A stretch of 64,000 bases of DNA from Chrysomallon squamiferum. Lineage: Eukaryota; Animalia; Mollusca. Under the pieces are notes generated by a model. The model had not been told where the DNA came from and did no database searches. It saw only the letters and a list, made by a program, of their open reading frames with translations. A program made the translations under genes and the position numbers. This document shows positions 710 through 64,000 of the stretch, piece after piece. The stretch's first letter is position 1, and every line of letters begins with the position of its first letter. The DNA lies in NCBI GenBank assembly GCA_012295275.1, contig CM022665.1, positions 24,490,001 through 24,554,000 of the forward strand. The letters run 5' to 3'.

Positions 710-805
710 TCAAGAAACTTCATTTTCATACTGTTTGCGAAAGCATTCTCCCACTGGAATAAAGTTCCAGCATCGTTGTTGATACAACTCCCACACATAA
801 GTTTC
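710..805 (-). CDS. RyR: RyR terminal coding exon
   Basis: [31 protein letters not shown]; TAG acceptor. Confidence 0.95.
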
Positions 806-1053
806 CTATAAACATTAAAAACAAAAAGAAAAAAAAAAAAAAAAATTTCAAACCTTAACAAAGATTAAGCATATAATATATGTAGGAAAAAAAAATGATA
901 TTTGAAAAACAAAGAAAAACTTATTTTTTAAATGTAAATTAGTTTTAATGAATCTGTTTAATAAATAAGCAGAAAAATAAGTTTAATTTTCTTATACATG
1001 TAAAATGATTTATTTGAAGTATTCCACTTACAATAATAATAACAGAAATAATA

Positions 1054-1084
<31 letters not shown>

Positions 1085-2664
1085 GTAATATTGAAAATGA
1101 AAATGAAAATGGGAAAACAGAATAGAAAAAGAAAGGTAAAACTCACTTGTCCAGTATACTCTGTGTCAGGCTTATTAATTAAGTGCATCAAAAAGAACCT
1201 GAATAATAAAAAATAAAAAATAAAATAAATATTTAGTCTTTAACTTAACATGCTACAGAAAGTACATATGTTTTGCAGTTTTGCCTTATGTTAATTATTG
1301 GGTTTTAAAGTTTATTTTACATCTTTTTTTTTCTTTGTTTGTTTCTTTTAACTGAAATAAACAAAACAATCCTTGACCAACAACATTCTTCAAGAAATAA
1401 AAGACAACAATTGGTTTTTAATATTTTTAAAATTTTGTGGAAACTGCAGTGTCAATAAAATAAATACATGTTTTATTAAAAACAATACTTACATATAGTT
1501 CGCAAAATTATGTTCATTTTGGACATGAGTCTCAAACCCATGCGGCACTTTGTCGAAATATTCTTTTCCAATCCCACAAATGAAACATTTGGACTGAAAT
1601 TACAAGATATTTTATTAATTAACAAAGCTTATAATATTATGACATTCAACTCTTTGAAAACAGTGTTACATACATATCCACTCTTTATTTTTCAAACCGA
1701 ACATATTGAAACCTTCAGTCAAATAAATTAACCAATAACTTCCCATATCTTTATTAAATGGTTATTAATATTTAAATTATTTATCCCTGACATACAAGAA
1801 TAGTGTTATTAATGATGATATGTAAAACGATAAATATTTAACAGGTGAAATATCAATAGTACCTCCATGTCTTCTTTGACTTGTTCTAACTGATCTCTCA
1901 ATTCTCCAAAGGCATCAATAATCAAACCTAAAAATGTTAAATGTTGAAACAAATTTATATCAATGTTAATCATTTTATACATAGTTTAATCTTTGTATTT
2001 CCTACAGAAAACAAAAATAAAATAAAATAAAATAAAATAACTATTTTGATTAGATTATATTTTACAGATAACTAGTTTTCACTTTTATCCAACAAAAAAC
2101 AACAAATAATCTGTAATTAGAGGGAAAAAATTAATTAGTATTTTATGAGTGAATTTGGCTGATACAGTAAAGCAAAAAAAATCTTTATAAATAATAATAA
2201 AAGCTGATGACCTTGTATAATGGCCAGCAGAATAACAATGACAAAGAAGAAGAAGGTGATGTCAAAGAGAATTCGGTACACTTCATATGGATCTCCATCT
2301 GCTGGTTCTATCTCATCACCAATTCCTCCTCCAGCCCTCACACCAGTATGCAGATGATAAACAAAACACTAAAATAATAATAATGAATACAGTTTATATT
2401 TAATTATATTTTGAAGTTACTATATCACTGTAGATTTAATTGTGAACAAAAAAAAAAAAAAAAAAAAAACACAAATTAATATTTTCATTCATATACTGTA
2501 AAAGAATTTCATGCAGACCATTACAATGTGTTTATCAGATTTTATCTTTTTCTTTTTAATTTTAATTTTAATTAAGTAATTAATTAATTAATTTATTTAG
2601 TACCTCCATGACTTTTATAAAATTCCTATAATAATTTTTTCTATTCTTTTATTCTATTGATTTC

Positions 2665-2702
<38 letters not shown>

Positions 2703-2757
2703 TTCCTCCCATAATTATTACATAAATTAATTTTGTGAAACAAATATTCAGTTTACT

Positions 2758-2840
<83 letters not shown>

Positions 2841-5800
2841 TTTACATACTTTTAGACTATCAATAATTAAGCGGTAAAATGTGATATTTTACAAAGAACA
2901 CAAATTAAAAAACTTACTGTCATCATGTCATGGCATTTGTAGTCAACCTGGCCATCTTCCTCCTTTACGTAGAACTTACGGAAGAAGTTGAATGCCACAA
3001 CAGTATAAATATACACCAACACACACAGCAGCATCACAGTCAACACCAGCTGAAATGCCCATGTGTTATAAATTAACATTACATAAATCAAAATCAAAAC
3101 CCTCAATGGGTTTTACTTTCAGTTTGAATAATACAAAATAATAATAAAAAGGTAAATGAAATCCTGGAAATAAATATTTGTAATATGAATTTCATCTTTT
3201 TAAAAACAGTGAAAATACTCTTGTAGCAAGACAAATGAAAACTACATTTATTATCAACACAAGCAAATGAAAACTCTAAATTATGATATGAAAGAAATCT
3301 GAATGAAAATGCATTAAATTTGATCATATCTGAAAATAACAAAAGTTAATTAATAAAAGTTTTTTTTTTAAATTAGAAAAAAGCACAATATAGCAAGTAA
3401 TATATAATAATTAACAATTTTAGGAACTAGGATACTAAAATATTTTTAAAATTTTAAAACATTTAAAAATAATAAAACCCATAAACTCAGTATAGGCATA
3501 AAAACATATATGTATGCTAATTAAAAAAAAATTTAAAATAAATTAAAATAAAAAATAAATTAATAGGACATAGTTCTGCACAAAATGTAATAAGACTAGC
3601 AGTAGTTACCTGTTTTCCATTGTGTGTTACAGACTGCATTATGGTTCTCAGAGTCTTGAAACCAATGGCAACATCAAGCAGGTGGGCAGCGAAGAAGAAA
3701 TAGTTGAAGTTGCCAAAAACGGAGAACAAAAAATACCAAACTATGTATAGGAAGGACTGAAAAAAAGCAAATGGATGAAAATTATATTACAACCATTTAT
3801 TATTAATAAGTTTTCAAATGATATTTTAAAAAATAATGGAAAACATCTCTGATTCATTATAATATAAAAAGATATTCTTCAAAGATTAGGTATAATTGTT
3901 TTGTATTTAATCTCTGAAACTTATGTAAATTAGAAAATACTGACAACCTTAAAACATTAGGAAAACCTTTACCAGTACTATTTTGGTGATACATCAAACA
4001 TTTAGAAAAAGAATATGATTCAAGGTCACACAAGACAAGCTGTTTGCCACTGCATCAACAACTCTGAAGTTTTTTAATATTATCTTTGTATAGGCAGGAT
4101 AAGAAATGGAACTGTTTGTAAAATTTAACACTGAAAAATATGCAAGATAATAAACATACACATGTTTCAAGACTTCACAGTTTTAATTAAATCTATCTTT
4201 CTTTATTTGCCATCATGCAGATTTAATGGACTCGTTAAGAATTCACTTTTATGCTTAACAACACATTCTGATTTGCACTGTCTGTTTTCTGTTGAATTGT
4301 AACACAGAATATCTACTTACATTGTCAGTGAAGATTACTCCCCATTTCCAGATCTGATACTGCAAGTCAATGCTGACCAATCTAGAATCAGAAAAAGAGG
4401 AAAGAATTACTATAAGTTTGTATCTGGATTATCAATTCAACTAAAATTTATTCAGATATATTTATATTTTAAATATTAAACCAACAAAACTGCTGGTAAC
4501 AAAGAATAAAATAAGCATATATGGATGCATGGTAGGTGTCATTTTCGCTTGTTATACCATGATGGAATACAAAAATAAATGAAAATGCCAGATATTCTCA
4601 ATAAGACATATCTGCAATGATTGACCCATGTTTAATTTTTATTTGTGATCACAATAACATTGCGGTGTCACAAACTTCTTATTTTATCATAACACTTTAT
4701 TATTAACAAAGATTGTTGGTTAGCAAGAAACACAATGATTTATAAATAATTAGATCATTTATACACAGCGGCAAAAATACTTCAGTGTTTATAAGTCATA
4801 TGAATATACAATTTTTTAATAGGATTTAAAATAACAGTATGCTGAGACAGATAAACAACACTTACAAAGCTGTAAATCTTGACTTCTGTTCACTGTCTGC
4901 AGTGATAGTATCACCTTTCTCCATGCCTAGCAGATTGCTGATAGCTTCATAATCATACTGTTCTGAGTAGCGAGAACGAACCTTTTTCTTAACAAACTTG
5001 TCCCAGTAACTTTCTGGAAAGGACTGAGTACTCAGCACCAGTTTATCCCAGTGTGCCTTCAGGTCATCATCTCCTGGCTGTTCTGCTATATACAGTCCTT
5101 CAAATTCAAGTTTTCTAGCAATTTCTTTTTCTCGTTTGAAAATTACTAAAGGCACTTTAAGACAGTAGTATCCGACAAGCATGGAGAACGATATCAGTGT
5201 GTGTATCACTGCAAAACATCGCATCACTATCTCCAAATAGGAGAGGTCACCTTCAATTATAACAATCTCTTCAACTTCAGCTTCTTCAGAGTCAGTGGCA
5301 TTTACATTTTCTTCTAAGTTGCCATCTGCATCTGGCATCACCTTGGCAACCTACATGGAACATTTTATATTCAGATTTCATTAAATACTGATACAGTAAC
5401 ATTCCACATTATGTAAATTTTATAAATTTCAAACTGGAGAAAATTAATTCAATGAAGAGAGTAAATTTCTGTTTGATTAGATATGATTAATGAATATTTT
5501 TAAAAGAAATATTTGGTATCCTTCCTAGAAACCCTTTCAGAGATTATTTTCTCAATATTAAGGAAATAGAAAAAAATATATTTCACTATATTTATAAAAT
5601 AAATACTTACCTTGTAGAAAAGGAGAATAAAGTTGATGGCAAATGCCAAAGCCAAAGCCAGGTATTTGAAGTTATAGAAATTTCTTGCAAACAAACTCTG
5701 TAAAACAAACAAACAAATTTTAAAAAAAATTCTTTAAAAAAGAATTTAAAAAAACATATATGCACAAAAACATTTTCTGATGAAGTTATTAAATGGTTTA

Positions 5801-7091
5801 GTTACCAGTATGTATTTTCCATAATCAAAAGAGGGTACTTCTTGTTCTTCTTCTTCAGATTTCTGAACACCTTCTCCAACAGCAGGATCAACAACACTAG
5901 CAGCTCTGTGGAGTAAAATTTTAAAAAATACTGTATATAAAATTATTGAATAATTAAAACTTACATTTAGTTACATTTACAAAATTTAATACAGAAAAAC
6001 ATTTCATGCTCTATGTATAAAATGTATTGAAATTAATAATTTATAAAACTGATTATAAATAAATGCAGATTACATACACTATTCAAATGAGTAGCATATC
6101 TAATATAGATTAAAATGTGAGTTTTGTTTCAGAAAAGATAAAATAACATACACTTTACGATAACTTACATCAACTTGTTCTGTATGAAATAATCATTGTG
6201 ATAACAAATTATATAATTCTAATCACATACAGAAAGATCATGCTGAAGCCATATTACTGGAATATATCATATTTTTCACAAGATAATTATTACAAACTTT
6301 CAAACAATAATTATATCATAAAATAATCTGACAAAGAGTTGTATCCCTCTGTATAGCTTTATTCACATTATATATGAAATCACAATTTTACAAATAAATG
6401 CATCATAATATAATGAAAATTTTACCTGACAAGTTCGGGTGTCTGAATTACAGGTGCTGCCTGCATAGTAGGTGCAGGTGCCTCAGTTTTATACACTATT
6501 TTCTCCTGAACTATCTGTAATATGAAATAATATACTTGAATAAAGTTACAGGCAAAAGTTTCTAAAACTAAGGAATAACAAATTTAAAAACTGCCATTAT
6601 ATCACAGACATTGAAAAAATATGTCTTATTATTTTACAAAGTTAGCAAATATATATATAAAAAACAAAAATGTTTACTAGATTTATCACTTGAAAATTTG
6701 TATCTGTTTTCACTGACTTTAAAGTTTTAGGTTTACTCACACAGACATAACACTGAAGCTGAAATGCTCCACACATTAATAAAATCACACTTTCAAACAA
6801 TACAATAAAAGGTATGCAAATTATTTTTAAACACATTATTTGTATACACACACAGTTTTATGAAAAGGCAAAAAAATAAATAAATAAATAAATAAAACTA
6901 ATTACTTCAGCCAAATAAGCAAGTAAATACCTCAGTAGTCTCTGTTGCGGACTGCCCAATGACTCCATTCAGAGTTGTGTCCCCTGCAACACCATTTGGC
7001 ATATTGCTATCAGCATTTGTTGTTCCAGGTGGAGCAGTGGATAATGGTGGGACAGATTTCTCTCCATTCATCACATTTCTGTTAAAAAGTC

Positions 7092-7140
<49 letters not shown>

Positions 7141-10100
7141 GTAGTAGTAGTAGTAGTAGTACTAGTAGTAGTAGTATTGGTAATATTAGTTGTAATAGTA
7201 ACAGTAGCAATAATAATGGATAAATCACATTTTACTGTTGGTACTGCTGTTTGAATGTTAGTTTTAAAGAAATTGTACTGCTCAGTTTTAAAATATAAAA
7301 CAAAACAATAAATTTATCTCTTTAGATAATATTTATAATCGTAAATGTGTTTTGATTCCTGCTATAGATCACACTTTTATGTATTAATTTCATGTTATTA
7401 AATTACATCACAAGATTATGCACCAAGTATATACATCACTTGTGACTATAATACAGTCAATATAAACACATACTGATTGGTATCCATAGGAGAATCACTA
7501 GGTAATGGTGGCTTCAGATCCCCATTTTCATCAGGCGGGTACAATCCCACTATTGGTGCACCCAGTGCTAATGGACCCACTGGTGCTGGCGGAACTTCCT
7601 CAGCCTTTGTCTCCTCAGCATCCTTATCTCCCATCATCATGTTAATGAGAAACTTCATCAGAGTCCTGTAAAACAAATAATAACATATCACAGCCTTTTT
7701 AAAATCATGCAGGATATACTTCTTGTGAAAGGACAGAGATATTATGAGCATACGTTTTAATTATTCTTAGAAAAGACTCAGTAATATTGTAATGATTAAT
7801 GAAGAATTACTTATAACATACAAATAACAAACAATAAGAAAAAAGAAAGAAAAAACAAACATATAAAAAATGAATAAGGATAAGCTAATTAAATAAAAGA
7901 TAGTTTTATACATGATTAATCTTCCTGGTGATCTTTTTGAAAAGCAGTTCAAGGGTTCAGAACATATCTGCCATATGGCCTAGAAATCAAATGATTTAAA
8001 GTTTCAAAATACATATATTAATAATACCAGTTAAATTATCAGATAAATGTATAACACAATTACCAGAAAATGTGAAAGATGAGAGTCAACAGAAGGAATG
8101 CCATTTTGAACGTGAGTTTGATGGATGCCACAAACAGCTGCCAGTATGTCATGCTTTTCACTGTCTTGTAGGTTTTCTTCAGGTTTGTCCAGGTTAGGAA
8201 GGAAAGTAAGGCAGACAGGTTGTCTTTGATGAACCTGTATGTCAACACAACTGGCTCAAGTACACTGAAATACAAAAAAGATAAAAGTTGTTTTAAAGCA
8301 GCTACAATAGCTATCCCCATACTTTTAAATTTTTAAAGTATACTTGAAAAAGATGAATGTAAGTGTGTTATATTATATACTGAGTCTTAAAATTTTAAAC
8401 TGCATATATAAGAAACCTTACTTAATATAATATGTATAGCCATACCTAAAATGATGATGATGATGATGATGATGATAATAATCATGATCATAATAATAAT
8501 AATAATAATAATAATGTATAATTTCAGTGTGCTTTGTTAGGTCAAAAGAAATTTGAAATTAGATTTTACAAAAAGATGAAGACAGAGAGTCAGATGGATG
8601 GGTTGAAAGAAATAAAGAAAGACCAGCAAAATGCACAGAAAGTTCAGAGATTTTGATGAGTTTGTTTTATGTTGGATTGTGAAAAGGAGTTCAGTTGTAT
8701 CAGTGTTACATGTGTTTGAGTTTTTCTGCTTATTTTATAAGATTAATAGTTTAAAAGATAGGGGAGAAACAAAAACGTTTTTTAAATTCGGTTTCATGTC
8801 TTTTTCTTTCTTTTTTTGAAATTTTTAATCTGAAATGATATAATCAAAATTCCAAAATTAACTTTAAGGTTTATGAAATGTAAAATATAATAATAGTAAT
8901 AATATAATAATGTTGATTAAAAAAAAAAAAAAAAAATTCTGATCTGTAATCATTATTAAATAATTTGGGACATTTGTTTCTGAAAATGATTGATAAAATA
9001 ACAGAGTGGTGTTGTAAATGATCAAAATTATTAGCAATGATATTTGGGGAAAAAAAAGTTATATGTGCAAGCATCAAGGTTTTTAAATTAAGAAAATAGA
9101 AATGAACAGTTATTTGGGGCAGGAGTAACAAAATACTGAATAATATATTCTGTTAAAAGTACTGTTTTATCATTTAATTTGAAATCTCTTTTCAAATTTA
9201 ATATTTAATATTTAAATTTACATGTAATACTTACAATCTTTATATGTTCAGAATAAATTATAAACTAATTCTGACAATCATTTTCATGAATTAATTAATT
9301 AACAGTTAACAAAAACTGGAAACCATCATTAGCACATTTATTGAATTTTTTAACAAGTCATGCTTAAAATCAAGGTGCATTTTCGTGGCTGATTTTCATG
9401 GACTGAAAAGGTAATAAACAAATTCAATAACCTTGTTCCTGGTTCTTTTGGTTTTGTTTGACTGAAATAATATCACAACAGACTACAACATGCTATCAAC
9501 TAAAGATAACACTGAATCTACAACAGAATACATAACATATAATGCTATTTTTGTATATGTAGTTATCTTAAACAATGTATCTGTGCTCACTATTCCAATA
9601 ACAAAGGAAATTAAACTGACAATATGGAAAAGCAAAAAATATAAAAATAATTAATTGCTTTCACTAATAGCATTAGTTAAAAATAGTAGTAATGCTCTAA
9701 CAAGCAGACAAAAAAAATGTTTAAGAATCAAACCAACTACTAATCTGTCTTTTAAAATTCAGTTATAAAAAAAGAACATTTTCATTCACAAATTTTTATA
9801 ACTATTCTATTTAGATGTCTAAACAAGTTCTGCATGCCGATAAAAGATATGAAAGTTTTTTTTATACATTAAAATCCTTTAAGAAATACAAAATTTGTTT
9901 AAGCATTTTATTTCCCTCTTCATTCCAAAATGTTTTCAAGAATATTTTGAAAAATTTGTGTTTATTTTAATAATAAAATTACCATATAAAATGCTAAATA
10001 TATTTTCATAACTGTGGGTGTCGCTATAATTAAATATGTTAGTCAGTAATTTTATTTTATTTTTTAATACATATATTTTTTATTGTCCCAAAACTGTTTT

Positions 10101-12647
10101 ATGATAATGAGCTGGTTGGGGCACTAATTTCATTACCATAATTACAAAGCTTTAAACAAATGTTACATTCTTAATCTAAGAATAATTTCATCAGTATTTT
10201 AACTAATGATCAACTCACCCTCCATCACCACTGAAACCAGCTCCACTTCTCATAGCTGCAATCCTCTGTTCTTCAGCACTTATACTTGTTGCATGTTGCA
10301 TCTGAAATAAAAGTTTATTAAATATTTTTTTATGATGATGAATTAACTGACTGTCTTTTGGTTTCTTATCTGTTTAATATTTCAGTGTATGTAAACAGGC
10401 ATTCTCACTAGTCAGTAGTGTTGTTTTGCTCAACATAAAATTGTTGAAGTTTCAAATTCTGTGACAGTTTACTGTAGAATGTAATACAAAATAAAACAAA
10501 TTTCATTATTTAATGATAAATTTTAAGTAGACACCAATGTTTTTATGATATTTGCTTATTGTTTTACATATTTTGTTACTTAATCTTTATTTTTGTTTTA
10601 AATAATATGCTTATTTATTTATTTATGTTTTCCAATTTCAAACTGACAATACCTCAAAGATTGTGTCCTCACAGAAATTGATAAAACTTTCAAGTTTTTC
10701 CTTGTCTCCTCCTTCATTTACAACACTGTGTAAGAATGATCTCTTTGACTCCTGAACAAAAATGAAAAAATTGTTTTTATTAGTTAGAGAAGACTGTCTT
10801 TGTATAGTTCAGTTTTATTCAGAATGTTTTTTGTAAATTTTATAAACTTATATATTTTTTTATCACTCCTTCATTATTATTATTACTATTTTTACTTTTA
10901 TAGCTTGTGAAAAATTCTTTTGAATTTGATGATGATGATAATGATAATTTCTGGTTTGTATATATCTATTCATTTACTTCTTTAATTTTTGTTCTTCATT
11001 TATATATTTCTTTACATGTCAGACAAGATGTGCAGAAATTTTGGAGAGTATCCTGATATAAAAAAAATTCTTGTTATTCTCATATCTGGCTGATTCATTA
11101 TTACCTAACCCTTTTAAAAATCGTAATTTAGATTACAAACAAACTGATTACCTTAATCTGTGGTTTCTCCCACTGGTCAATGTGAGACTGTTTGATTTCA
11201 AAGTACACTCTTTCTATTCTGTTGGCACTGCCCATGATCTCAATCCTGCCCAGGTATGGCTCAAAGTAAGTCAAAACACTGGCTGCCTTTTCCAGGAGCC
11301 TCTCGAGTCTACAGGTGAGAATTAAGATTCATGTAATAAGAAAGGTAGATCAGAGGTACATTATTTAAATACCTGTATGTATACCACTGTGCTTTTATTT
11401 TTAGTGGACTAAAATTAACATTACTTTATAATTAGCCAAAAATTAAAGAGAGATAAATTTGTTGTTTTAAGAAAACATACATAAATTATGAAACTGAAAT
11501 AACAATGAATTTCTAATATAAATGTTTTCTCCTTAAACACCTATATAAATATTTATTTATTCACTTCATATTCTCATAGCCTCTAGAGAGAAAGAATTAT
11601 ATTTTGACAAAAACTGAAATGATGTTTGTATATATAATTATTACTGAATTCTCAAGAAATAAAGTTTCAAGGTTGTCTGTATCATCAAAAAAAATAAATA
11701 AAAAATAACATTTTGAAAAAGATATTTCTTTTTGCTTTCAAATGAAGAGTGAAAAATCAAAATACACGTAAATTAGTTTAAAACAACAAACCTGGGTTCA
11801 TTTGGCATATGTTCAGACAGATTGGTAAGCAGTACAGCCATAGTGAAACCAATATCCTTAGCTGGATTGTGGAAACGATCTGTGAATTCATGGAAATCTA
11901 CTTTGCCATCATGGTTAGCATCAACACACATCATAATGTATTCTATTTCCTCTCTGCCAAAATACAAAAATAAAAATCATTTATGTATATTATTAGGCAA
12001 TAAGTGTTTTTTAAAGTACATTTTTAAATTTCATGAAAGTACATTTAAAAATATAGAATTTGTTAATAAAAACCTATAAAGTATATGAAAGAGTATGTAA
12101 ATTTAACTGCAAGTAAATAATACTCCCAAAAATTAATTGCAAAAGCTGCATAAAACTTCAAAAAAAAATAAAGAAAGAATAAAAATAAAATAAAACTACA
12201 CTCTAAAGAAATATTTTGCAGTTAATATAGTCTTTGTGAAAGTTTATATGAATATAATTTTATAATCTAGATTATTCGTACACACAAAATGGGTTTATTC
12301 ATATGAATGTGAAAAAAAAAGTATTATTTTATTATTGCATTAATAAAAATGCAAACAACTGATATAACAAAAAATACACTGCAAAAAAGGTTAGTCAGAG
12401 CATGAAATCCAAGGGGAATGATAAGGGGAAAAATCACATTTTGCAGTAAATGTTCATAGTAAAATAAGTTTTGTAACAAAAATCAAAATGGATTCTCTGA
12501 AATAAAATCTTTAAATTATACACATGATAAATGCTCAAAACATTATACACAATAAAATAATTTAAAAACACAAATTAAATCACTCCAGATTTAAAACTAA
12601 AAGACATAAATTTTAAAGTTAGACATTTCATTCCACAGTACCAATTT

Positions 12648-12678
<31 letters not shown>

Positions 12679-15479
12679 ACTCCTTTGGTATTATTTAGTT
12701 TTATTTAGCAAAAATATAATTCTCTTAAAGTTTATTTTCATCTTCTGAAACTTAATATTATTGAAATATTAAGTTAAGGAGTTAATCAATAAAATGTTTT
12801 AACACATTTAATAAATAAAATATAAAAAAACAATGACAAAAAAATAATAATAAAAAAGCATTCCACAAAAGGAAAATTTGAAGTTTTCAATAATAAAATT
12901 TTAAAAAATAAATCAATTTATTTTTTATAAAAGTAGTCAATGAAAAAAAAAGATAGTAATAAGCTGCTCCAACAAACAAGCACACTTTTTAAAGGCTTTT
13001 ATTTTTTAATTTTGATAAAATCAAATCAAATCTGCAACATGTTATTTTAAAAGTAAGGCTGTGATAATGATGTAAATTTAACAAAGGGCAAAAAGGAAAA
13101 GAAATCATGATGGCTTGAGAAATTTCAAAACACTGCACAAAAAAAGGTAAAATGAAAATGTATCTTGTCACTTTCTTTTATGAAGTAGCTAAACAAGGAT
13201 ATTCAACCACATAAAAGATGAGGGCTGATTGAGGTTGGGAATGTAACAAACAAACAAATGAATAAAAATAATAACTGAAAACAGTGTTCATGTATTTTGA
13301 TTTATTTTTCTTTGTTATGGTTTTTAGTTACTTTCTATTTTGTTATTTTCTTTGCCATTATTTTAACATTATGAAAATGTTTCTCTAGTATGTTATTTAA
13401 AATTCAAAATATAATAATTGTAAATAAAACTTGGAACTAAACATCCATTATTTGTTGACAATTCATTTCAAAATTGCAGTTAAAGGAAAAACAGTTTATT
13501 GTAATGTTTTAAATAAAGAGAGTAACACACAGGAATTTTGTGGTGTTTTTTTTTTTTATTGTTTTTGCAGCATTTTTCAGTGAAAGAATTTATCTTTAAC
13601 AAGCAGAATACATGGTTTTGTATGGTGGATTCTGTGTGTGTTTTCATTTTCTGTAAACTTAACAAATGAAAATCTAAAACCTGTGTGCACAAATTGGGGT
13701 GAAAATTGTGAAACAGCAATGAAACATCACTCGGAATGGGAACTTATCATTCAATGGACAAAACTCAGGCTTCATGCAGCCAACTTACTCCGAGTAGAAC
13801 TTTTGGGCTTCCAAAGCCCTTCTGAATTCTTTATGTGAAATCCAGCCATCTTTATTTGTATCAAATTCCTACAGTAAAATAACAATGTAATACAATGTAG
13901 AAATATACATCTGACAGAAGAATATGTACAGGTATGAGCTAAAGGTATCACAAACCTGGAATATGCTTTTTGGCTGTCCATGGCCTTTCGAAATTCTTTA
14001 GAAGAAATGTAGCCATCTTTGTTGGTATCAAACTCCTTTTTGAATGCATTAATACAAGAAATTCAGATGAAGATTACAGTACTTAAAAATGATTAAATAT
14101 GTAAAATAAAAATGTTAAATAAAAATGCACAAAAAAAAAAGTCAAAATAAGATATAACACAAATTTGTGTCTGTATAAACATTAATGAAATTTTTATCAC
14201 CTTTGAAAATAATGTTTTTAAATATGCACAGTAAATGAGAAAGTGTGAAATAGCACCTCTTTATCTAAACAGTGTTTTTATGTGTATTTTTGGATGAAAA
14301 CAGCAGAATATTCACTCATGGAAATATGTAAGAAAACAAACTATTTACCAAGAAAGCTTCAGATGTTGTGAGATCCTTCATTTTCAAGAATATGTCAAAG
14401 AACTTCAAAATCATCTGCAACGAGAATATTTAACATTCTTGAATAAAAGCTTTATAGAAGGAAATGAGGTATATTATATTTTACCTAACAATTTAAAGTG
14501 ATATATTGCAAACACATTTTGCATAATAAATTGCTGAAAATCCAAATTAATTTGACTTAAAAAATTTGTAGAAACAATAATTATATCTGTATATAATTTT
14601 GTTTCTAGAAGAATAAGATATAAACAAAAACAAAAAGTAGTTAAATTTACACCCTTAATTTTTATGATCCATCCATGTAATAATTTGTATAATGTATAGC
14701 ATGAGCATGTATTATATTTAACCATGGTTAAAATTCTAAAATCATATCAAGCTGGTAAATTATTAAAGCAAAAAGATAAAACAATTTGTTTTAAAGAAAC
14801 TGAATGAAAAATATATTAATTGTACCTCAACATTACTGGCAGATTCTACCAAAGTATCCACCATCTGTTTTCCAATTGGTCCATTCATCACATTACCTGA
14901 AGATAGTAAAGGACATAAACGTAAGTTATTTTATTAAATATATAAATCTAATCAAGTCCTATAAAAATGTGTACACCTTGTGTTATAATTATATTTCTGT
15001 TATCCATTGAAAATAATAAATTCCAATTTCATTAAAAAAAAAAAAATAATAATAATTCCGAATAAATACTGTGTTTACCTGAAAAAGAACAAAGATAAGA
15101 AACCATGAAAAATATGATATAAAAAAACCCTCAATATCTTAGAAATTAAATATCTCAAGATATTTAAAATTTCAGATAAATATAATTATAACTGACAAGA
15201 AATTAAATTTTTTTGCTAAGCCAGAAATATATATCAAAAGCATATGAAGTTATATCATGTCTAATGTAAAAACCTTGAAAGGAATATTAATATTTTTAAT
15301 GCAAATAAAAAATAATGTCTCTGTCCTGCTCACCTTCCAGCATTGAAAGCAGCATAATCATCATGTCTTTCTGAAGTTTCATGAACTCACGCAACAGGTC
15401 CAGCTGTTCAGGGTCCTGTTAATACCAAAAAATTAAATTATAAATTCTTTTTTTAAACTGAATGAGGAATAAACTATAT

Positions 15480-15510
<31 letters not shown>

Positions 15511-18500
15511 GATGATGATGATGATGATGATAATGATAAGAGCAACAACAACAATAATAACAATAACAACAGAAACAACAGTAACAATAATAATAATAAA
15601 AAATAAATAAAAATAATGATAATAATAATAAAAAAAAAAAAAAAATTCAAAATTGCAAATGGTGATAAATTGTTTTCAATTTTACCTTGGAAAGTTTGTC
15701 CTGCATGTGCGCAAATATATAGAAAAATCCACCAACAGCATCCCACAGTCGGCTGTGTGCCAGAGCCAGCTGGTTCAAGGAACAAGGACCCTAAAAAACA
15801 AATATGTAAATCCACTTAATAATTACAGATAATTATCATTTAAAGTTATTTATTTTATTATTTATTCTTATTTCTTCCCATCTTAAAAAACAACAACATC
15901 CAAACAAAAACATTTTAAACTTGAAAAATTAATGAATTTTATAAATAATTTTATAACTGTGGTATTATTGGGTTTTTAAAAAAAGAGTATCAAGGTATTT
16001 ATTATTTTATTATTTATATATATTTTTTTAAACATATAATACAAAAAATACATTTATTTACATATTTATTTTTCATAAATGGACACATGTTCATAAATAA
16101 TTTTAGGCTGTACAACTCAAGAAGTTCTGCGAAAAAGCTTATTGAAAAAACAATTCTGAATTAGTTTATATTCTCATGTGAATTTGAAAATAAAGCTAAA
16201 TACAGTTCAAGAAAAGTTTAAATAGCTGAATCATTATGGTCTTCAGTGTAACTGCCAAAGCCCAAACTTTTACTCCATTTACAGTCTTTGATATAAATTC
16301 CAAATCCCAAGACTCATTCCATTCACACATTCTGATATACTGATGTCAATTACCTGGATATATTCAGACAATGTGTTGAACACCTGTGATGCCACTTTGA
16401 TGGCCTTACAGAAATTGTCTTTGCCAGCAGTGTCAATGATATCTTTGCCTGAGTAGTGCCAGTAGAAATCCATTATAGATTCCTGTAAAGGTTTATAATC
16501 AAAAGTAAAATAAAGCTGTTGTTTTAAAAGTGACTGTATCTGCTAAAAGATTTATTCTGTAATTGATACTTAAATTTTAATATTTCAGTTGCTTAACATT
16601 AAATGTGTATTCATATATTTATAAAACTTGATTGATTTAATTATGATCAATAAAAATCCATCTAAAATTTCATATACAGTTAAAATTAAAATTATTTGTA
16701 GACTGTTTGGAACAAAAAGATTTGGAGAACTCAACATCTGAGTGACTATTTCGAGGTTTTTATATTTATTTTTTCACTTTTATTTATTTATTTCATTTTT
16801 TATTATTATTATTATTATTATTATTTTTTTTTTTTTTTTTTCTGATAAAATTCAAGAAGGATCTTGTCAGTGTAGTAAATAAATAAAAATAAAACCTTGG
16901 ACAGCTTGAAAAGAAAATAATCACTAAAGGAAAATGTTGTACATTAATTTTATTAACAGAAAACATTATAAAGTGTTTTATTATAAATGAAAATATAATA
17001 ATAATCATAATATTACCTGAAGTCTAAGGACATAGTCTACTGTACAGATGATGATGTTCACTGTGGTTGTGTTACCAGCCTGTGTTCTGAGGTAGTTTTG
17101 AAATTCTGGCGGAAAATAAATTGAAAAAAAGAAGAATATTGAATATGAAAATAATTTTAATATTGGTCATGTTTGCTTTAGCTTAAACTTTTCTCAAAAG
17201 AATTTAAGAAAATTCTAATATTATTGTGTTGATGGAAAATAGTGTATTCTCAATCCTTTTTTTTTTTAAATCTATAAAATTATTAGTAAAAATTGAAGAA
17301 TAAACAATAGTACAAATATTAAGAAAAACAATAGTGCTGATAATGGTGATGGTTACAATAAAATGATAAAAATTCATTTTCTTAGCATCAGTTGTCTGTA
17401 TGCAGCAATAATGTAAAAAGTAAAAAACAGAAACAGGCTGACAAAGAATATTTTTAAAATCTAACCTAGATTGTGACCCTCACACAACAGTTGTAGGAAT
17501 CTGAACAGTTTACAGGTGAACTCAGTCTTGTCCTCCTCATTAGTGTCAGCACTCATACCCAAACCTTCTGCCTTGTTGGTTCTCTCAAAAGCATCCAAAT
17601 CCAATACACTGCAACCAAAATTAATAATTAAACTATAGTCAAAAATAAAAATTTAAGAAACAAATAACAAAAGCAAAAATATATTGCTTATTTTACGACT
17701 TTTTAAAAATGTATCACATTTTGCAATTAAAAACAATATTAGCAGTGCCTGAAAAAAAGAAAAAAGAAAAAAAAATTCTGTTGTAAGTAACAGATCATGT
17801 ACATAAAAAAAAAAATTCTGTTTAAAAGAATCAGTGTTTACAAAGCCAATGATTCACAACAGATTACAAACCTGCACTGCTGCATCAGACCGGCCACTGA
17901 TGTGAAAAACCCTACATCTTTCTTATCCTTGAGATGCTGCAACATTTTCTTGAAGAAAAAAAAAGAAAGAATAAACATATAAATTAAAGACGCTACTGGC
18001 AATAACGATGAGGATTATTTTTGCTCATTTCTGTCAGAAATCTGTTCACACATGCATCTTATGCCATAACCTCTGACAGGACAGGATGGTTTTCATTTTA
18101 TTTTGACCTTACACTGTAAAATGGCCAATTAATTAAATGAATTAAATTAATTCCAACTCAATGATGAAAAGTGAGAAATGATCAACCATGGTTGTACTTT
18201 GTAAAATCTAGTCAGCACTTACTTTCTGAACATCAACATTGCCTCCTCTTAGTAAAGATATTCCTAAGTCAATAGTGTTCATAACCATAGGACCGTGTTC
18301 TCCTGAAAAAATGTATTAAAATTGTTTCTAATACATTCAGCAATCCATTTTTATTTTATACAAATATATAATATTCATTTACTTTTAGTGAATTAAAACC
18401 GTTATAGTCACTAACCTCTGCTGGCTCCCATGTAGAGCAGAACCATCTCAGCAGCTCCTCTGTCTGCCAGTCTTGACTGTTCAAACAGAAGTTGTTGTTT

Positions 18501-21500
18501 CTCCATCTCTTGTTCCTTTAAACACATATGCAAAATGAAGTATTAAAATAGAAATATCTTCCATATATACTTATCAAGGATTTAAAATGTATGTATTGCT
18601 GAAAAGAATCCAGAAAACTGTTTTCATTAAAAAAAAATAATAATTTAAATTAATTACACAACATTAAAATTTAAATCATAAGCATAAAGGAAGTGAAAGG
18701 TATGAAGATTCAGAATGTTATTATTTCAAACAAATTGAAATGAGTAATTATATGAGTAATTATATTTCATGAATCAGTTCAGTTTGCAATGGCAATTCAG
18801 TACATGTATATGTTTTAAAGGAATTTTTTATTTTTTATTTGTTAATTTTTTTTTTTTTTTTTACCTTCCAGAATAAATTATTTTACACACAGAACAAAGA
18901 TGGAACACATTGAAGGGTTTCATAAAATTAATAGCAGAGACTGTCCAATAAACAGTAGGGAAATATCTCATAAACAGTAAGGACTTTTCAGTAAACAGCA
19001 GGGATAGCCTAATACACATCAGGGACTATCCAATAAAAAACAAGGTTAGACCAAGACACATCAGGGATTACCATGAATAACAGGGATAGCCCAATGCCAA
19101 TACAGTAATCAGCAGGAACTGCCATATAAACAGCAGAAATTTTCCAGTAAGCAAAAGGGGAAGATCCCACAAATAGCAATGATTACCGCTACAAATACCA
19201 GGCAACATGGATCATAAATTTTTTAATGATCCTTTAAACACATAAGTTAAAGACAATAATAAAACATCCGAAATGAATTTTTAAAATTATTTATAATATA
19301 GACAAATAACAACCTTATGCAAACCATTTGTAAAGCACTAATTTACAATTAAATCAAACAATTTGACAAAATGAAACTGCAGAGCTTTGGTTTTAAACAT
19401 AAATAAATACAGCATTCCATACAGTGCAAAATGTCTCATTTTATAAGTGCTGTTTATTAATATCTACAAATTATTTCTACTTAATGAGCTATGTGGTTTC
19501 CCTGTAGTTGTATAGAAACTTTAAAAAAAAAAATCTAATCACTGATTACTGATTATAAACGAACCCACAAAATAATTTTACATAACAATATAATCTGTTT
19601 AAATTAGTAAATGTAACTGTGTTTTGATAATAAAGAGTGTAATCATACTTTTGTACATGCAATACTACCTAATCTTCTCTGAGATATTTAGTTTTGCTTC
19701 TTTTGGAAGACAAAAGAACAAGTGGTTGAAATTTTTTCATTTATTATTTTTATTTTCCTATTGTTTGTTCAATCAGAGTATAATTATTTTGCCAATAAAA
19801 TTTAAAGTTCTTTGAAACAAGTGTAATAATCTTTAAAGACAAAACTCAGAAACACAAATCAATTTCTTTTAAAGCTAATTTATAATATCAAATATCCATT
19901 TTTACATAATGGAATCACAATCTGTTACCTTTTTCTCTTTTAACAAACCCATTATTTTGCAATCCTACACATTAGCTGATCAAACTGCATAATAACAGGT
20001 ATTCGCTGCAGTATGAAATTATTAATTCTGATTTTCATTTCAAATTATTATTTCTTTCTTCTTTTTTTTTTCTCACAAACGTTTTATATATTTAAGAATT
20101 GAAAATTCTACAACTATGCTACGTGTGGACATTATAAACTAATGACTACAGCTACAACATGATGTACGCAGACATTTGTCCATCACAGAGTACACAATGT
20201 CTACCTTTAGAATATCCAGTTTGATCTGAGAGTTGCAATATGTTAAACAAATAAAAAGACATAATACAAAAATCATATGAGAAATAAGTGTTTAACTGAT
20301 ATTTGAATACCTTAAATTGTCAAATAAATAAGATATTGTATTATGCTAAAAAAACAAAACATCAATTAATAGAAGTTTGAAATTATGATGTGATGTCAAT
20401 ATATCTCATAAAATAAACAGAAAATGCATTCTTAAAAGGCTTAAATAATAATATTTTTAAAAATCTAAAACAATAAATATATACAAAAAAATTTAGTATC
20501 TACCTGATGAGATGAAAATAAAAATTTAAATAATGGTTTATTGTAAAAGACTATTAAAGACTGCCATTTGACAGTGTTCAAAAATTATATATCAAGCCAT
20601 AGCAATTTCTAATAACTAACACTAGAATTCAATTATAATATAGACACATTGCTAAACCTTCTGATGTTTCAAGTGGATGACTCAATTGTTATTTGATTAT
20701 GATTTGAAACATTAATTTTTTTTCTCTAACTAATCTAGTATATAATAGCATCTTTAAAAAAATCTCTCTTTTTTTTTTTTTACTTTGGATTTAGAACATT
20801 TACATAATACTCTTTATCAAACACTTTTGAGTTTTATTTATTTATCATCATTTTTTTTTAATTGTTTCTTCATTTTATTTTTTGTCTAGTTATAATTTAT
20901 TTTTATACAAACAACTGTTGTGATTAAAGCACAGATAAATATTTTGAGTGATTATATGCAGGAAAGCAGGTTGCAGCTTACATAAAGTCTACATTTCATT
21001 AAGCACATCTAAAAACAGATTTATGTGAAATATTTACAAATGATCAAAAAATGATAAAATATATTTGAAGTAGTTAGTAAGAAGAGAAACACCAATTACA
21101 AAAGCTTATTAAAAAGACATTTAATTTCTTTACTTACCTCAAATGATGGGCCGGGACCTTCTTCATCACCACCATCATCATCATCCTCTTCATCCTCACC
21201 ACTACAGCTCTGAAAGATTAACATAAAACAAAATAAAAAAATTTCTTGCAGTGATAATGTATGTAATTAAACAATTTGTTAACAGTTTATTTATACTGTT
21301 TATCAACTTATAAATATGATCAGCAAATAATTAAAATGTTACGGTTGACAAACTTCACATTTACTACAAATGCACATGTTCTCATTTTATATAACTGTAG
21401 TTTATTGTTTCAGGTCAGTGCTAACCTTGCTCATAATGCCAGCATAAGCCATATACAGTGAATCTTCAGGTAGACTGCTTGTTTGTTCTTTGGTTGCTGC

Positions 21501-22517
21501 TCGGCTCAGAGCTGTGATGAGCTGTGTCAGAGAGTCTGGTTTTACTTCCTCCTCCACATCCTTCTTTTCTACTTCTTCTTCTTTCTCATCAGAACGCTAT
21601 AAGAGTAAATAAATATGCATTCTGAGTAAAGGAAAATTAAAGCAAGCAATAAAGCCACATTCCATATTGTGGATAAATGAAAAGTGAAGACAAGTAACTA
21701 AATCAAGGTGCTCTAACAGTAAATGTATAATGTTGGCAATCTATAGAAAAATTACTGAAGGAATTTGGAACTGTTCTTCTTGAAATATATTTTAAAATAT
21801 GTACTTCAATAAATGATCTGTTTCTGTAATATTTTTTTATAAAAATCTGTCATTTGGAAAGTGTCTGCATATGCATATAGTTTGTGGTAGACCATGTCAT
21901 GTACTTACAGTCAGGTCCTCAATAAGGATGTTTTTGTCTGGTTCCTCTGTCTGCAGCCACTGTTCTTTGTAGTGTTTCAGGAACAAATTGATTGCTCGGT
22001 GCCTGAAAAACAATGCACAACAATTCAATGTATGGTTTTTATCATAACTATTTCTTTGTTTTACCAATCCATTACAGCTGAGTGTGTATCTTTCTGTCAA
22101 TATTTTGTGTATCTTTGGGTCTAAATATTGCCTAGGGGTTTACAAACAAGCTGACTTTTAAAAATAAAATTGAAGTGAATATAATCACACAGACATGAAG
22201 TATTTAAGGCTGATCTCTGTGGAAATTAACAGACTGTTTGTTAAATTACCTGGGTAAGCTGTACAGAGGAATCATTCTGAAACATGCCATTACAGCTCTC
22301 TTTCTTTGTGATGAAATTACTTTCTTCCAAGCACCTTTAGCTATAGCCTGTGGATGCTCAACCTATTTGGAGGAAAATATATTAAAACAAAAACAATAGC
22401 CAGAAGACTTTAGAGTACATAAGATAAATTCAAATGACAAAAATTAGAAAGGACACCAAGAAGAAGAAGAAGATATATATTACTGTTAACATATACAAAC
22501 AAAATAATGTATATAAA

Positions 22518-22548
<31 letters not shown>

Positions 22549-24155
22549 CACTAATTTACAAATCTTAAGCCAAATAATTATTAAAATATACAAGGAGATT
22601 TTTGTTATATAGAATATTTTTTTTAATAAATATGGATTTTAAAAATGATCTTACTTTTGACATTAGTGATTCATATCAACAGATAAGTATTATTATTTAA
22701 CACGTGAACATAATCCAAAATTCTTAACTTTTTTGCTTGGTGTATACAAAACAATTAGGACAAACTTCTAAGATTAACTAAATATCAGACTAACCAAATG
22801 AAGTCCATGCATGACTTTTGCCATGGAGATGATACGATCAATGATTTTGCTCTGACTAAGCTGACTCTGGCCAGCCATTTTGGTGTCTCCAATTTTGCGA
22901 TATAAAACTTTCTGCCACTGTGTCGCTTCATCAGTGACCTGGGTAAATAAAACAGAAATTATATAATATTTTAAATTGAAGTATTATACAAATTTTCTTT
23001 CATAGTTCATATAAAGTATTTATTAAATCAATTTCAAATTTGAATTAAAAATGTTTTACCGAAATACATTATCTAAATGAAATCATGAAGTGTTTCACAA
23101 ATAAATCTTTAGGATAAATGTATAAAAACTATTATATAATTTATTTATTTATTAATTATTTTCCTAATTATTTCTGTGCATAATAGTAATAATTACATAT
23201 TTTATTATACGTAAATATTAGCATTATAAACCTATAAAATAATAGTAATAATAATAACAATAACAATAAAATAATAATAATAAATAAATATAATAAATAA
23301 AAAAAATAAATAAATAAATAAAATAATAATATTAAGAAGAACAAGAACAAGAACAAAAAACAACTGAAAACAGTAAAAATTAATGATCAAACTGACCTGT
23401 TCCATCATCTCCAAACTTTGCAGAAGAAATTCTTCAATGTCTCCCTCCGGCTCCTTCTAAGGCAATAAAAAATTAGAAAAAAGGCCAAGATGAAGAACAC
23501 CATGCAAACATTGCACACCATGCACTAACACTGGTTAGGCATTCTGCTGGTGTCAACCCACACATAGTCATTGTTTAATTAATCATCAGTAATTTATAAT
23601 ATGGAAAAACAATAAGGGAAACAACAGAAAATACTTCAGGTAATGTATTTGTAAAAGATAAAGTAAGAAACGATAGTAAAAGTTAACAGTGGAAATAAAT
23701 GAAGAAAAATAGAGGGAAAGAATGAGAATGAGAAATGTGTGAGAGAAAGGAAAAGTTGAGTTCACAGAAAAGAAAATCTTGACCTAATGGGAAGTTATGT
23801 AATAGAAATGATAAATTCATGTAAAAAAAAATTAAAATTCTGATAAGAAAGAAAAAAAAGATCATTTAGAGAATAGAAATGAAATATAAAATATCAGAAA
23901 TAATAATTGTAAATAAAAACATTTCAGATAACCAAAATGAGAATATATGCAACAGAAATTAAAAACAAAACAAATAAAGAAACCAAAATTACATACAGAA
24001 ATAAATGTTGAAATAACAGAAATAACTAAACTGAAAATTTTGTACAATCAGATTATAAAATTTAATTTCAAATGAAAGATTTAGATTAAGAAAAAGAAAA
24101 AAAAAGAAAAGAAAATGAAATTTCAATAAAATAAAATAATAATAATAATAATATA

Positions 24156-24212
<57 letters not shown>

Positions 24213-25628
24213 CAACAAATAAATTACTTAATTAATTATTAATAATTTAAAAAATAGGTAACAAATTTGATAAAGAAAAAATTCATACAATGTAAAATGA
24301 CATAAGAATAATAATGAAAAAAATAGTCATAAATAAAAAGAACAGTAATTATGTATATAATATAAAAAATTAAAATTAAAATAATTTAGAAAGACAAAAT
24401 AAAAATGGAAAATCTGAGGAATTTTAAAATAAAAATGAAAACCAAATTGAAAATGAAAAGAATAAAAAAATTAAAATTTATATTTCTTTCTAAGTAAAAG
24501 AAAAAAAAAAGAAAGAAGGGAAATAGAAAAGAAACAACAATAAAATATGATATTAAAGTTCAGTATTATTAAATCCATAATTATTATGGTGCAGATATTA
24601 CAGTTTTCATAATCCTAAATATGTGCATAATAGATGAATAAATTTTGTTTCAATACATATTTTATTATGTATTTTTTATACGAGGGAAAACAAAAATGTT
24701 GGACATGCTCACAGTCCACATCAATGTTTAAATGAATCACACACTGTAATTGCAAGCAAAGTGCTTCAAATGGTTTCATGTGGGCACAGTAAAAACAAAT
24801 TAAAATAATCATACATGTGCAAAAATGCATGACTGTGATCAGATCCATTACACATATCCATACACAAGAACAAAATAAAATTTAAAATGCAGGACAGATA
24901 ACAGATGGGGCAAACCTCAAGAACAAAATAATTTATTCTTTAAATTATGTTTTTTTTATATAAGTTATTATTAATAATGATACTAATTTTAAATTAGTTA
25001 AATAACTTTTTAAACATTATGGGCATTACTTAATAGAACAAGATTTGTTACCTGTCCTAATTTTTTAATTTATAAATTTTGCTATTGCAAGTAAACAGAA
25101 TACATCTGTATAAGTATATAAATTAAACTTAATTCACAATAAAATTCACAATATCTTTTCTTGACCTATTAATATTAATCTAAAATTTGATTTTCACTGT
25201 TTTTGCTGTATCTCTGAATTTTTCTTATTCAACTGCCTATTTAATCTTCAACATACCTGAATCAATTTTTGCTTAGCCTGTTGCAACAACTCTTGCTCTC
25301 TGCCAGTGAAGAAAGACAAACCAACAGGAACCAGTCTCTTCAGACAAGCAACATTCAGACTGTTGTGTGGCTCCAAGCGAGTCTTCCGTTCTCGTTTCTT
25401 TGATCCAACATGGCGTTTAGAGCTTGTGCCACCATCCTGGTTTGGCTCCATCTTGGATATAGCCAGGTGCTTTGACTGACTGGGCATAATCAATGCCATG
25501 TTGTCCACCTCATTGTGTGCTACAAAGTTCTGTTCTTCTCTCATGAACATCTGAAAAAACCATTATGTGAAGTTATGAATTTGTATGTAATGTATGTAAA
25601 CAAAGACAAGTGTGCATATTTGTATTAA

Positions 25629-25661
<33 letters not shown>

Positions 25662-28600
25662 ATGTGAAATAATATTTAATTCAGTGTATACTTAACTGAT
25701 GATTATGCTTAAGAATTTTTATTTATAATCATGTGCTTTACAAATGTTAATGAAACAATGTTCAAAATAATTATGAGGAATTTTGTTACAGTACAGTTTG
25801 TATTAATCCATTTTCAGTTTAATCTATTTACCATTATAAGATTTATTTTAAAAAAGAAAGAAAAGAAAACAAATATTGCAAATACACACACAAGCAAATA
25901 TTTCAATACATGTGTCTTTTATTGCATTAAGGGAAAATTTAGTATTTTCCTATGTTTTCACTTACAAGAGATCTTGACCAAATGGAGAAAATTTCTGCCA
26001 CACAGCTAAAGAGTTCCTCACACTCTGCAGTTGGATATTTCAGCCAATGAGATCTGTGCAGGTCTACATACTTGATGAGCAGTGGGTAGAAAGCATACAT
26101 GTCACGTGTCAGGTTGTTGTATTTCTGAAATAATGCACATGTAATTATTTATTATTATTATGACAACAAAAATTTTAGAAGCATTAGTCAAATATTTATT
26201 ATATGAAGACTGAAATCATTTTAATGAAGCTGATTCAATTCAAAAGCGGTAAAATTTTAAATCTTTCCAAAATGCTTAAATTTTATGTATATTTAATTCT
26301 TATTTAAAAGTTAATTCTCACAGCAATTAATAATAGATATAAAAAGCATTAAAGTTTATTAAAACAAACGAAATTTGTAAATATTCTCATAGCTTTAATT
26401 CAGAAATCTAGTGTATGAAGCAGCAAGCCTGAAAGCAAAACAAATATAAGATTTTTTAAAAATGCAGTTGGAAGAAAGATTTAAAAAAAAAAAAAAAGAT
26501 AAAGATCCTAAAATTAAATAAAAATTATTATGTCAGTCCTTTAATTTCTATAACTTTATTAAAATTATTTAACATTTTATTTTTTACCTCCTGCACTGTT
26601 GCTTCCATGTCAGAAGTGTCCGAAACCGTTCTTTTCTCTATGGCCAGTCTTTTTTCAAGGTGCTCCACACTCATTGCAGTTTCTTTCAGTTTTTTGGCAA
26701 TCGGCAAGAAGTGATCTTTTATCATGTCAGGAGTAGAATTGGCAATAATTGGCTGTGTTCGAGCTATTGAAAAACAAAAGTGAAAAAAAATGAAGTATCT
26801 TTTAATATGTATATATGCTGATGAATGAATGAATGGCATCTTAAAGCAAAAAGCAAAGTTAATTTGTCTGCTATTTTTTTTATTATTGTTATTTGTTATT
26901 TTTTTTTATGGTAAGAAATAATTAAAACTTTTTTTTAGATTTTATTGTGTTTGATTTAAAATATTTTTGTTAGTAAGGTTACCAAAATTAATAAATGATT
27001 CATCAAGAAACAAAATTTTAAATAAAATAAGTTGGAAATGTTATAACTGGAATACATACACTTGTTGTAATTATTTTATTTTATTTTATTGACAGTCATA
27101 AAAATAACACTATCTTTGATATTTATCTAATTAAAACTCAAGAGTATTACTGGCAATTCTGTTCATCCAGGGGGCATCTTCAATTCCAATGTTGTTGCCT
27201 ATCAAACTGAGTACATTGCCCAGAACTCCATTCATCTGCTCAGCTGTCACTGCAGACAGCTTGGTACTTCTGAAAATTAAAACAAGTCAAGAAATTGGTT
27301 ACATTTTTGAAATTATACATATTTATTTATTTTAAATAATAAGAATTAAAGAATCTTTTTATATTGTAAACTTTTTAACAAATAATTGTAATGTAAATTT
27401 AAAATAAAATAATAATAATAAAACATTCTAAACTTTTGAAAAATACAGCCAATATCACAGGGACCACCAAACAATATTGAGTTAACCAAATACCAACTCA
27501 AACAACTTTATATAGATAAAAAATATTGTTTGAAAATGAAATACATGTATATATTTATTTTTTATGGAATAATACAGTTTTAACACACTTTATAATAGTG
27601 CTAATTGCTATACAGTTACTATGGCTAGTTCTTGCCAACAATAATAACATGCATACTGAATCCAGATTAGAGTTATGAAACTAATTTTATGTTTGAACAT
27701 TTAATACAAATTTAAGAATAAAATTACATCTGTTTTATGGAAGAATAAGTAACAAATTGAACTATCACACAAATAGGCCTAATTAACAAAGTCCACAATA
27801 ATGCTGATAATGTCCATTATCTTTTAATGTTTGATCTTTTCATTAATAAAAAAAAAATTTGCCATAAATTTATTTGGTTAAAATCAGTTTCCATTTTATA
27901 TCTAATTATATTAACATAATAACAAAAAATACTTACTCCTCTGGTTTAAGAGTATCAGTTCTCTGATTCAGCCAAAATGGCAGATAGCTAAACAAAAAAA
28001 ATAATAATAATAAAATAAATAAATAACAAAAATAAAAATAAATAATAATAATAATAATAATAATATAAAATATTAAAAGTATTTTGTTAAAAATAAATCA
28101 GTTTATCTGAGTATTTTATTTTATTTTATTTATCTTCTGACATAAATACATGATCTCACTGCACCAGATAAGTTTTAATACAGAATTCATCCAGATAATA
28201 TTTCTAAATAAATAAGTTTAAAAAAACAACAAAAATTAAACAAAAATTTCTTTTACAAAGAAAAATATGCTTGAAAATCTAAGTAACAGATAACACATTA
28301 CTTTAAAAAAAAAAAAAGATTTCATGTCTTTATGAGATAAATATTTAACCCATATACCTGCACAGCATTGGCAGAGTTACTTCAATCACATGGGAAGCCT
28401 CATTGTATTTTTCTCTTGAGTTGGAGAGTTCTCCAATTTCTGCAAAAATCTTTTCTAAAGTAGGCAGATTCTGTGCCAGCTGGTCCATTACCTCTGAAAT
28501 ACATATTCACAAAAACAATGCAACAATGAACATTTTAAATATAAACATCTGTGATTAAACATGTTATCCTCATACAAAAATTGACCTATAACAAAAAAAA

Positions 28601-29431: not shown

Positions 29432-29486
<55 letters not shown>

Positions 29487-39084: not shown

Positions 39085-39163
<79 letters not shown>

Positions 39164-55800: not shown

Positions 55801-55860
<60 letters not shown>

Positions 55861-62682: not shown

Positions 62683-62714
<32 letters not shown>

Positions 62715-63780: not shown

Positions 63781-64000
63781 CTAAAACAAGACAAAATTCA
63801 GTAAGCATTTTTATTGTAAAATAACTATTTTAATATCAATACAGGATGTTTAATATTTAATTACATCAAAGAAATTAACAAATTAATAATAATATTAGTA
63901 AAAATATATATGTAATCAGAAGATGATTTTATTGATTTCTCATAAGAAATAATAATAATAAGAAGAAGAAGAAGCAAAGAAAGAAAAGGGAATGTTATAC

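Follow-up and report, generated by a model that had tools for sequence, protein, structure and literature searches.

In insects, one RyR gene is diversified by a regulated pair of mutually exclusive exons, a/b, located in the SPRY2 domain, and a further pair has been predicted at a calmodulin site (PMC3989282, PMC9785964, PMC4309888). This agrees with the SPRY2 position given in the original prediction for the locus described here, but these insect exons lie in other domains and no EF-hand pair is reported in the accessible text. The alpha-actinin genes ACTN1 and ACTN4 carry tandem duplicated exons that exchange part of an EF-hand, and there only one form keeps Ca2+ binding (PMC9741552), whereas the mollusc RyR copies all retain the ligand positions. 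Exons 37a/37b (EFa/EFb) of CaV2.1, CaV2.2 and CaV2.3 swap the loop and exit helix in the EF-hand region of a Ca2+ channel, and are likewise akin to the present case in their non-triplet length of 97 nt, in having the weaker exon upstream and in their effect on transduction; however, they belong to an unrelated family, and their EF-hand-like motif is not thought to bind Ca2+ (PMC7235277), in contrast with the canonical loops of the molluscs. The single RyR gene of C. elegans, unc-68, also yields tissue-specific isoforms, but does so through alternative first exons and DR2 cassettes, and the term 'EF-hand' occurs zero times in the main text of that report (PMC7644089). In their accessible sections, PMC4519896 and PMC7644089 report no RyR exon pair in the EF-hands, and we found no such pair described for any RyR in the accessible literature; supplementary catalogue tables, such as those of PMC9741552, a paper that names RYR3, Ryr and unc-68, could hold one. 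Both isoforms are present in RefSeq, uncommented. The exon pair in EF-hand 1 of RyR is real and conserved and apparently undescribed; it puts a known type of splicing at a new site.

The pair lies in a window of 64,000 nucleotides, the whole stretch of Chrysomallon squamiferum DNA that was analysed. Ninety-two tblastn segments match the RyR protein of Gigantopelta aegis from residue 701 to its end, with a summed identity of 84%, versus 62-72% for 12 other lophotrochozoan RyR references, so that the animal is likely a gastropod close to G. aegis. The gene is collinear with RyR through the SPRY, repeat, central, EF, transmembrane and C-terminal parts, with the pore motif in the exon at 2135-2368, which places it within the RyR family. 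By an ungapped offset the duplicated exon corresponds to rabbit RyR1 4079-4105, anchored at E4075, D4079, the loop at 4081-4092 and K4101 (PMC10832476, PMC12119028). The features are as follows:

713..63785, minus strand: ryanodine receptor gene, covered from roughly residue 700 through to its C-terminal end; the 5' part lies beyond the window
14349-14414, minus strand: constitutive upstream exon of 66 nt, encoding the entering helix and carrying the E4075 equivalent
13956-14035, minus strand: exon A, the upstream copy, encoding the EF-hand 1 loop, exit helix and linker, equivalent to rabbit RyR1 4079-4105
13869..13955, minus strand: intron between A and B, 87 nt
13789-13868, minus strand: exon B, the downstream copy, with an average acceptor, a consensus donor and Glu as junction codon
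13796-13787 with 13737-13728, minus strand: candidate 10-bp RNA stem over the donor of B, a lead only
11792-11953, minus strand: constitutive downstream exon of 162 nt, encoding EF-hand 2 and supplying, with its first base, the last letter of the junction codon
4943..4963, minus strand: stretch of the S2-S3 loop equivalent to RyR1 4730-4736, the predicted partner surface

A and B are adjacent homologous exons of 80 nt each, identical at 56 of 80 bases, both entered in phase 0 and left in phase 2, and their equal length, shared phase and sound AG/GT splice sites identify them as a tandem duplication; the coordinates, peptides and junctions originally given for them are right. Across 26 whole codons the copies agree in 9 and show synonymous changes in 10 and non-synonymous ones in 7 (pS 0.70, pN 0.18). 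The original prediction correctly listed loop positions 7 (Y/W) and 10 (S/H) and the exit helix among the protein differences, and missed an eighth one, the split junction codon, which reads Arg with A and Glu with B; the Arg codon opens with the last two bases of exon A. B resembles the single-copy exons of outgroups more closely in both donor and junction codon (Glu). Either copy alone gives an open frame from the upstream exon into the downstream one, and inclusion of both or neither leads, as foreseen, to an early stop within 11792-11953. Because the exon length is non-triplet, such double-inclusion or skipping transcripts would be frameshifted and presumably removed by nonsense-mediated decay.

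RNA contigs from all four runs of one study join 14349 to 14035 and 13956 to 11953, taking in A and passing over B. No contig from these four runs contains B, which is weak evidence against its use, since contigs drop rare variants. One copy per mRNA is thus what was found here, with A alone in 4/4 runs, and the same holds for the relatives' records with the exception of one Plakobranchus gene model, which holds both copies in the order A then B. In the RNA run X1, a 241-nt intronic contig (13546-13786, depth 2.2) begins three bases behind the donor of B; it may represent pre-mRNA or DNA and says nothing on the use of B.

Both forms occur in relatives. The G. aegis protein equals the B peptide at 27/27 residues (tblastn E 5e-11) and another isoform of this species matches A at 26/27, which excludes chance as the source of the pair. 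Among the records listed, 12 of the 31 named mollusc species with the region have separate records that carry different versions of this segment, two or three per species, a figure that becomes 12 of 15 for species with at least three records. Again among the records listed, B and A forms number 4 and 1 in G. aegis, 5 and 3 in Haliotis rufescens, 6 and 1 in H. asinina, 14 and 2 (of 16) in Biomphalaria glabrata, 7 and 1 in Bradybaena, 10 and 1 in Pomacea, 1 and 8 in Mercenaria, 2 and 2 in Ostrea, 5 and 2 in Magallana gigas, 3 and 7 in Mytilus galloprovincialis and 10 and 2 in Octopus bimaculoides. A single form was seen in the listed records of Littorina (11/11 B), Elysia crispata (3/3 A) and Magallana angulata (3/3 A). 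Ruditapes has three EF1 forms in five records (P0396, P0397, P0399), one of them a residue longer. Outside molluscs, and within the records listed, the nemertean Lineus longissimus shows two forms (11/14 and 3/14), and one form only is present in Schistosoma (11 records), Ptychodera (15) and Antedon (9). In Paralvinella P0013, a divergent EF1 segment is followed by six extra residues and is possibly one copy of an unannotated cluster.

Ten isoform pairs were compared, bearing in mind that RefSeq isoforms are computed models. Five of them are of equal length (Pomacea, Mercenaria, Ruditapes, Bradybaena and Lineus) and differ at 9-12 positions, all inside the 27 residues; the remaining five differ elsewhere too, or elsewhere instead. 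These pairs from four molluscs and a nemertean, together with the A junctions in RNA, support the mutually exclusive use originally proposed, and A and B almost certainly form a working mutually exclusive pair. Nine full-length transcript-derived Logan proteins, 87% like Octopus, comprise seven B and two A forms, and the A rows share alleles with three of the B rows. In this cephalopod-like cluster, a 36-residue cassette elsewhere in the protein is present in both A rows and in no B row, which hints at a tissue programme. The A form accompanies inclusion of this cassette in P0500 and P0506, and skipping of a 12-residue cassette in one G. aegis record, P0377.

Eighty metagenome loci were also recovered, 46 with both flanking exons and 34, L007 among them, missing a flank. 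The two-flank set divides into 36 genomic loci with one copy, nine that are spliced or intronless, and one, L003, with four tandem copies. The 36 single-copy loci are annelid-like, arthropod-like or rotifer-like; many of them nearly duplicate one another, and some lack the upstream intron. The arthropod-like ones, flanked on both sides, each have a single EF1 copy. None of the 80 loci contributed a mollusc genomic stretch spanning both copies, and a degenerate pattern for the B loop matched 0 stretches in the metagenome contigs. The tandem EF1 exons of L003 (L003:8048-9454) measure 80, 83, 80 and 80 nt, all with AG/GT flanks and canonical loops, and carry Arg, Lys, Thr and Lys, respectively, at position 4101. 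Its best scores are to annelid references, by a modest margin, so that the contig is likely of annelid origin as judged by similarity. Copies 3 and 4 are also present in L007:22-472, and between the two loci these copies show pN of 0.05 and 0.07 and pS of 0.47 and 0.59. The donors of the three upstream copies of L003 lack A at +3/+4, like that of exon A, and the donor of the last copy is consensus, like that of exon B.

In a tree of 56 segments, the mollusc copies that end in R all fell, together with one Lineus copy, into a single group at 90/84, unstarred. This A group dissolved in a 49-row tree from which the junction column was removed and 11 rows were dropped and to which the four L003 copies were added, and AU tests did not reject lineage-specific duplications in cephalopods (p 0.41), in the window together with Gigantopelta and Haliotis (p 0.14) or in the nemertean (p 0.53). 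A single origin is therefore unproven; for molluscs, the most economical account would be one old duplication. More tentatively, and rather doubtfully as a whole, lophotrochozoans may have kept a splice dial of two to four settings on the disputed inhibitory EF-hand of RyR from a time when snails, clams and cephalopods (and perhaps ribbon worms and annelids) were not yet separate lineages, so that a single gene would give channels of a muscle type and a nerve type that differ in Ca2+/Mg2+ shut-off, versus three genes in vertebrates; the A/B pair, with its identical ligands, would then separate ion binding from signal transmission.

To describe what the swap changes, 13 mollusc A/B pairs, amounting to about seven independent lineages and with A defined by the junction Arg, were compared. 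Loop positions 1, 3, 5, 6, 9, 11 and 12 and K4101 are identical between the copies in 13/13 pairs, and positions 7, 10, 4102 and 4105 differ in 13/13, a count that is partly circular because the junction Arg served to label the A copies. The EF-hand loop consensus has D/N/D at positions 1, 3 and 5, G at 6, a hydrophobic residue at 8, S/T at 9 and E at 12; at the level of sequence, the loops of A and B and of all four L003 copies fit it. Ligand loss in one copy, as in alpha-actinin, was found in 0/13 pairs. Since the ligand positions are identical throughout, a direct change of the ion ligands is excluded, and any effect of the swap would be indirect; the original claim of a swapped Ca2+ loop with different Ca2+ sensing finds partial support. 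Ala occupies loop position 10 in 11/13 A copies, in snails and bivalves. The exit helix and linker of A are more basic than those of B, by 2-3 charges in snails and bivalves and by one in cephalopods, and the junction Arg of A sits four residues from K4101.

K4101 of RyR1 forms a pair with D4730 in the S2-S3 loop of the neighbouring subunit, as E4075/D4079 do with R4736 of that loop; both K4101E and K4101M weaken Ca2+/Mg2+ inhibition, the former raising the Ca2+ IC50 from 0.85 to 2.4 mM; this EF/S2-S3 interface matters less in RyR2 (PMC10832476). The segment 4079-4105 encoded by the exon holds three of the four EF-region residues given as S2-S3 contacts (PMC12119028). At high Mg2+ the EF domain shifts over to the S2-S3 loop, and it has been proposed as the inhibitory divalent sensor (PMC11096358). 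In RyR2, deletion of the EF domain showed that cytosolic activation does not need it, and luminal Ca2+ sensitivity was reduced (PMC5583710). The S2-S3 loop of the window has Glu at 4730, Asp at 4733, Glu at 4735 and Ala replacing R4736; the other molluscs listed share these residues, with Gly at 4735 in Lottia.

On these comparisons we lean, with some reserve, towards a mechanism in which the tandem-duplicated 80-nt exon of EF-hand 1, spliced one copy at a time, would tune the shut-off of the channel by high Ca2+/Mg2+. The swap would alter residues surrounding the ion site and the contact between subunits, leaving the ion ligands as they are. The basic exit helix and linker of A, junction Arg included, would hold the neighbour's S2-S3 loop, acidic in molluscs and without R4736, tighter than those of B, and it is likely the Ca2+/Mg2+ inhibition passed through this contact that is tuned. 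Against this mechanism, the known contact residues 4079, 4100 and 4101 do not differ between A and B in this animal. The RyR2 findings also speak against it, namely the lesser weight of the EF/S2-S3 interface (PMC10832476) and the effect of EF deletion on luminal, not cytosolic, Ca2+ control (PMC5583710). The junction Arg may also be a by-product of splicing, since 13 of the 23 phase-2 donors of the gene end in AG.

The swap could instead, as in the original prediction, act mainly on the EF-hand pair's own Ca2+/Mg2+ affinity or selectivity by way of its second shell (residues at loop positions 7 and 10, packing of the helices), with the S2-S3 contact unchanged. Position 7 of an EF-hand binds through its backbone, and neighbouring residues shift affinity. 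The differences at 7 and 10 in 13/13 pairs, the canonical loop retained by every copy, L003's four included, and the lowered Ca2+ inactivation of RyR1 with scrambled EF1 acidic residues (earlier work cited in PMC11096358) fit such an effect; we nevertheless consider it unlikely as the main one, no ligand differing between the copies and the differences in inhibition between RyR1 and RyR2 having been ascribed to transmission, not ion affinity (PMC12119028). It seems more improbable that the two surfaces serve another input, whether sensitivity to luminal Ca2+, regulation by calmodulin or a tissue-specific partner, in place of cytosolic inhibition. Deletion of the EF domain in RyR2 does cut luminal sensitivity (PMC5583710), the CaV2 exons 37a/37b work through transduction and partners, not ion binding (PMC7235277), and molluscs are without R4736, but the variable residues flank K4101, a Lys conserved together with its acidic partner at 4730.

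The copies might also function alike, each having taken over splicing in different tissues, with splice-signal constraint and drift accounting for their differences. Substitutions in this species are mostly conservative, the AG donor bias can account for the Arg, and the A copies no longer group in the tree once the junction column is removed; Ala at loop position 10 in 11/13 A copies, the consistent charge difference and the expansion to three and four divergent copies argue otherwise and leave this reading with a small probability. It is very improbable that B has become a non-functional duplicate in this animal or that the two copies are an artefact of assembly. The absence of B from the RNA contigs is what a dead B would predict, but its splice sites are sound and its peptide is identical to the form in 4/5 G. 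aegis isoforms, where flanking exons average about 90%. The copies differ at 24/80 bases, mostly synonymously, and a contig of run X5, possibly the source of this DNA, covers 13400-14500 unbroken, spanning both, and departs from the window at two intronic places while matching it throughout A and B.

Turning to how exclusivity of the A/B pair may be kept, none of the 71 introns resolved in the gene is as short as the 87-nt one between the copies (the shortest has 113 nt), and in this 87-nt intron the likeliest branch A lies about 67 nt from the donor of exon A. The donor-to-branch distance threshold for steric exclusion is near 50-60 nt. So short an intron would help exclusivity here, and as the L003 copies are spaced by about 280-510 nt, steric exclusion by a short intron cannot be general. 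The acceptor of exon A is very weak, only 1/71 introns scoring lower, and that of exon B ranks 41/71; given its weak acceptor, A would be the regulated copy, and B would be used in tissues outside those sampled.

Mechanisms of mutually exclusive splicing have been catalogued (PMC6071210). Control by docking site and selector would have one docking element pair with a selector at each copy (PMC4691838). The stem over the B donor, spotted by eye before testing, has -14.3 kcal/mol, the strongest among the 71 donors, and was equalled in 1/1000 shuffles; at the equivalent donor place in L003/L007 a stem is not significant. Donor accessibility did not set B apart (0.42, mid-range), the A-B intron folds no better than shuffles (76/300), and the 25 longest of 355 inverted repeats in 11950-14350 are A/T runs. 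L003 and L007 both preserve one stem between copies 3 and 4 (9 and 3 of 200 shuffles), with three double changes, read by eye; its pairings with the other four L003 introns were not above shuffles (49-139 of 200), so that a full docking-selector set was not found in these loci, nor anything comparable in the window. Two predicted hairpins are kept in the intron between copies 3 and 4 (L003:9150-9305, L007:150-320), one with apparent compensatory changes.

The role of the EF-hands in RyR closure by high Ca2+/Mg2+ is still debated and bears on variants in malignant hyperthermia and arrhythmia. The mollusc A and B exons are evolution-tested versions of the EF element in an otherwise identical channel with unchanged ligands, and swapping these 27 residues sets ion binding against transmission directly. 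An invertebrate with a single gene may reach RyR1/RyR2-like diversity by exon swap, and the EF1 exon adds a site of repeated exon duplication, with two, three and four copies.

A scan for further duplicated exons around 89 segments, run without a positive control and with A and B both set as segments, returned low-complexity matches only. Elsewhere in the gene, two 27-nt micro-exons of unrelated sequence, both flanked by AG/GT, lie in the same interval on the minus strand (30763-30789 and 30373-30399). G. aegis isoforms hold one or the other (1/5 and 4/5), and the second is skipped in one cephalopod-like transcript.
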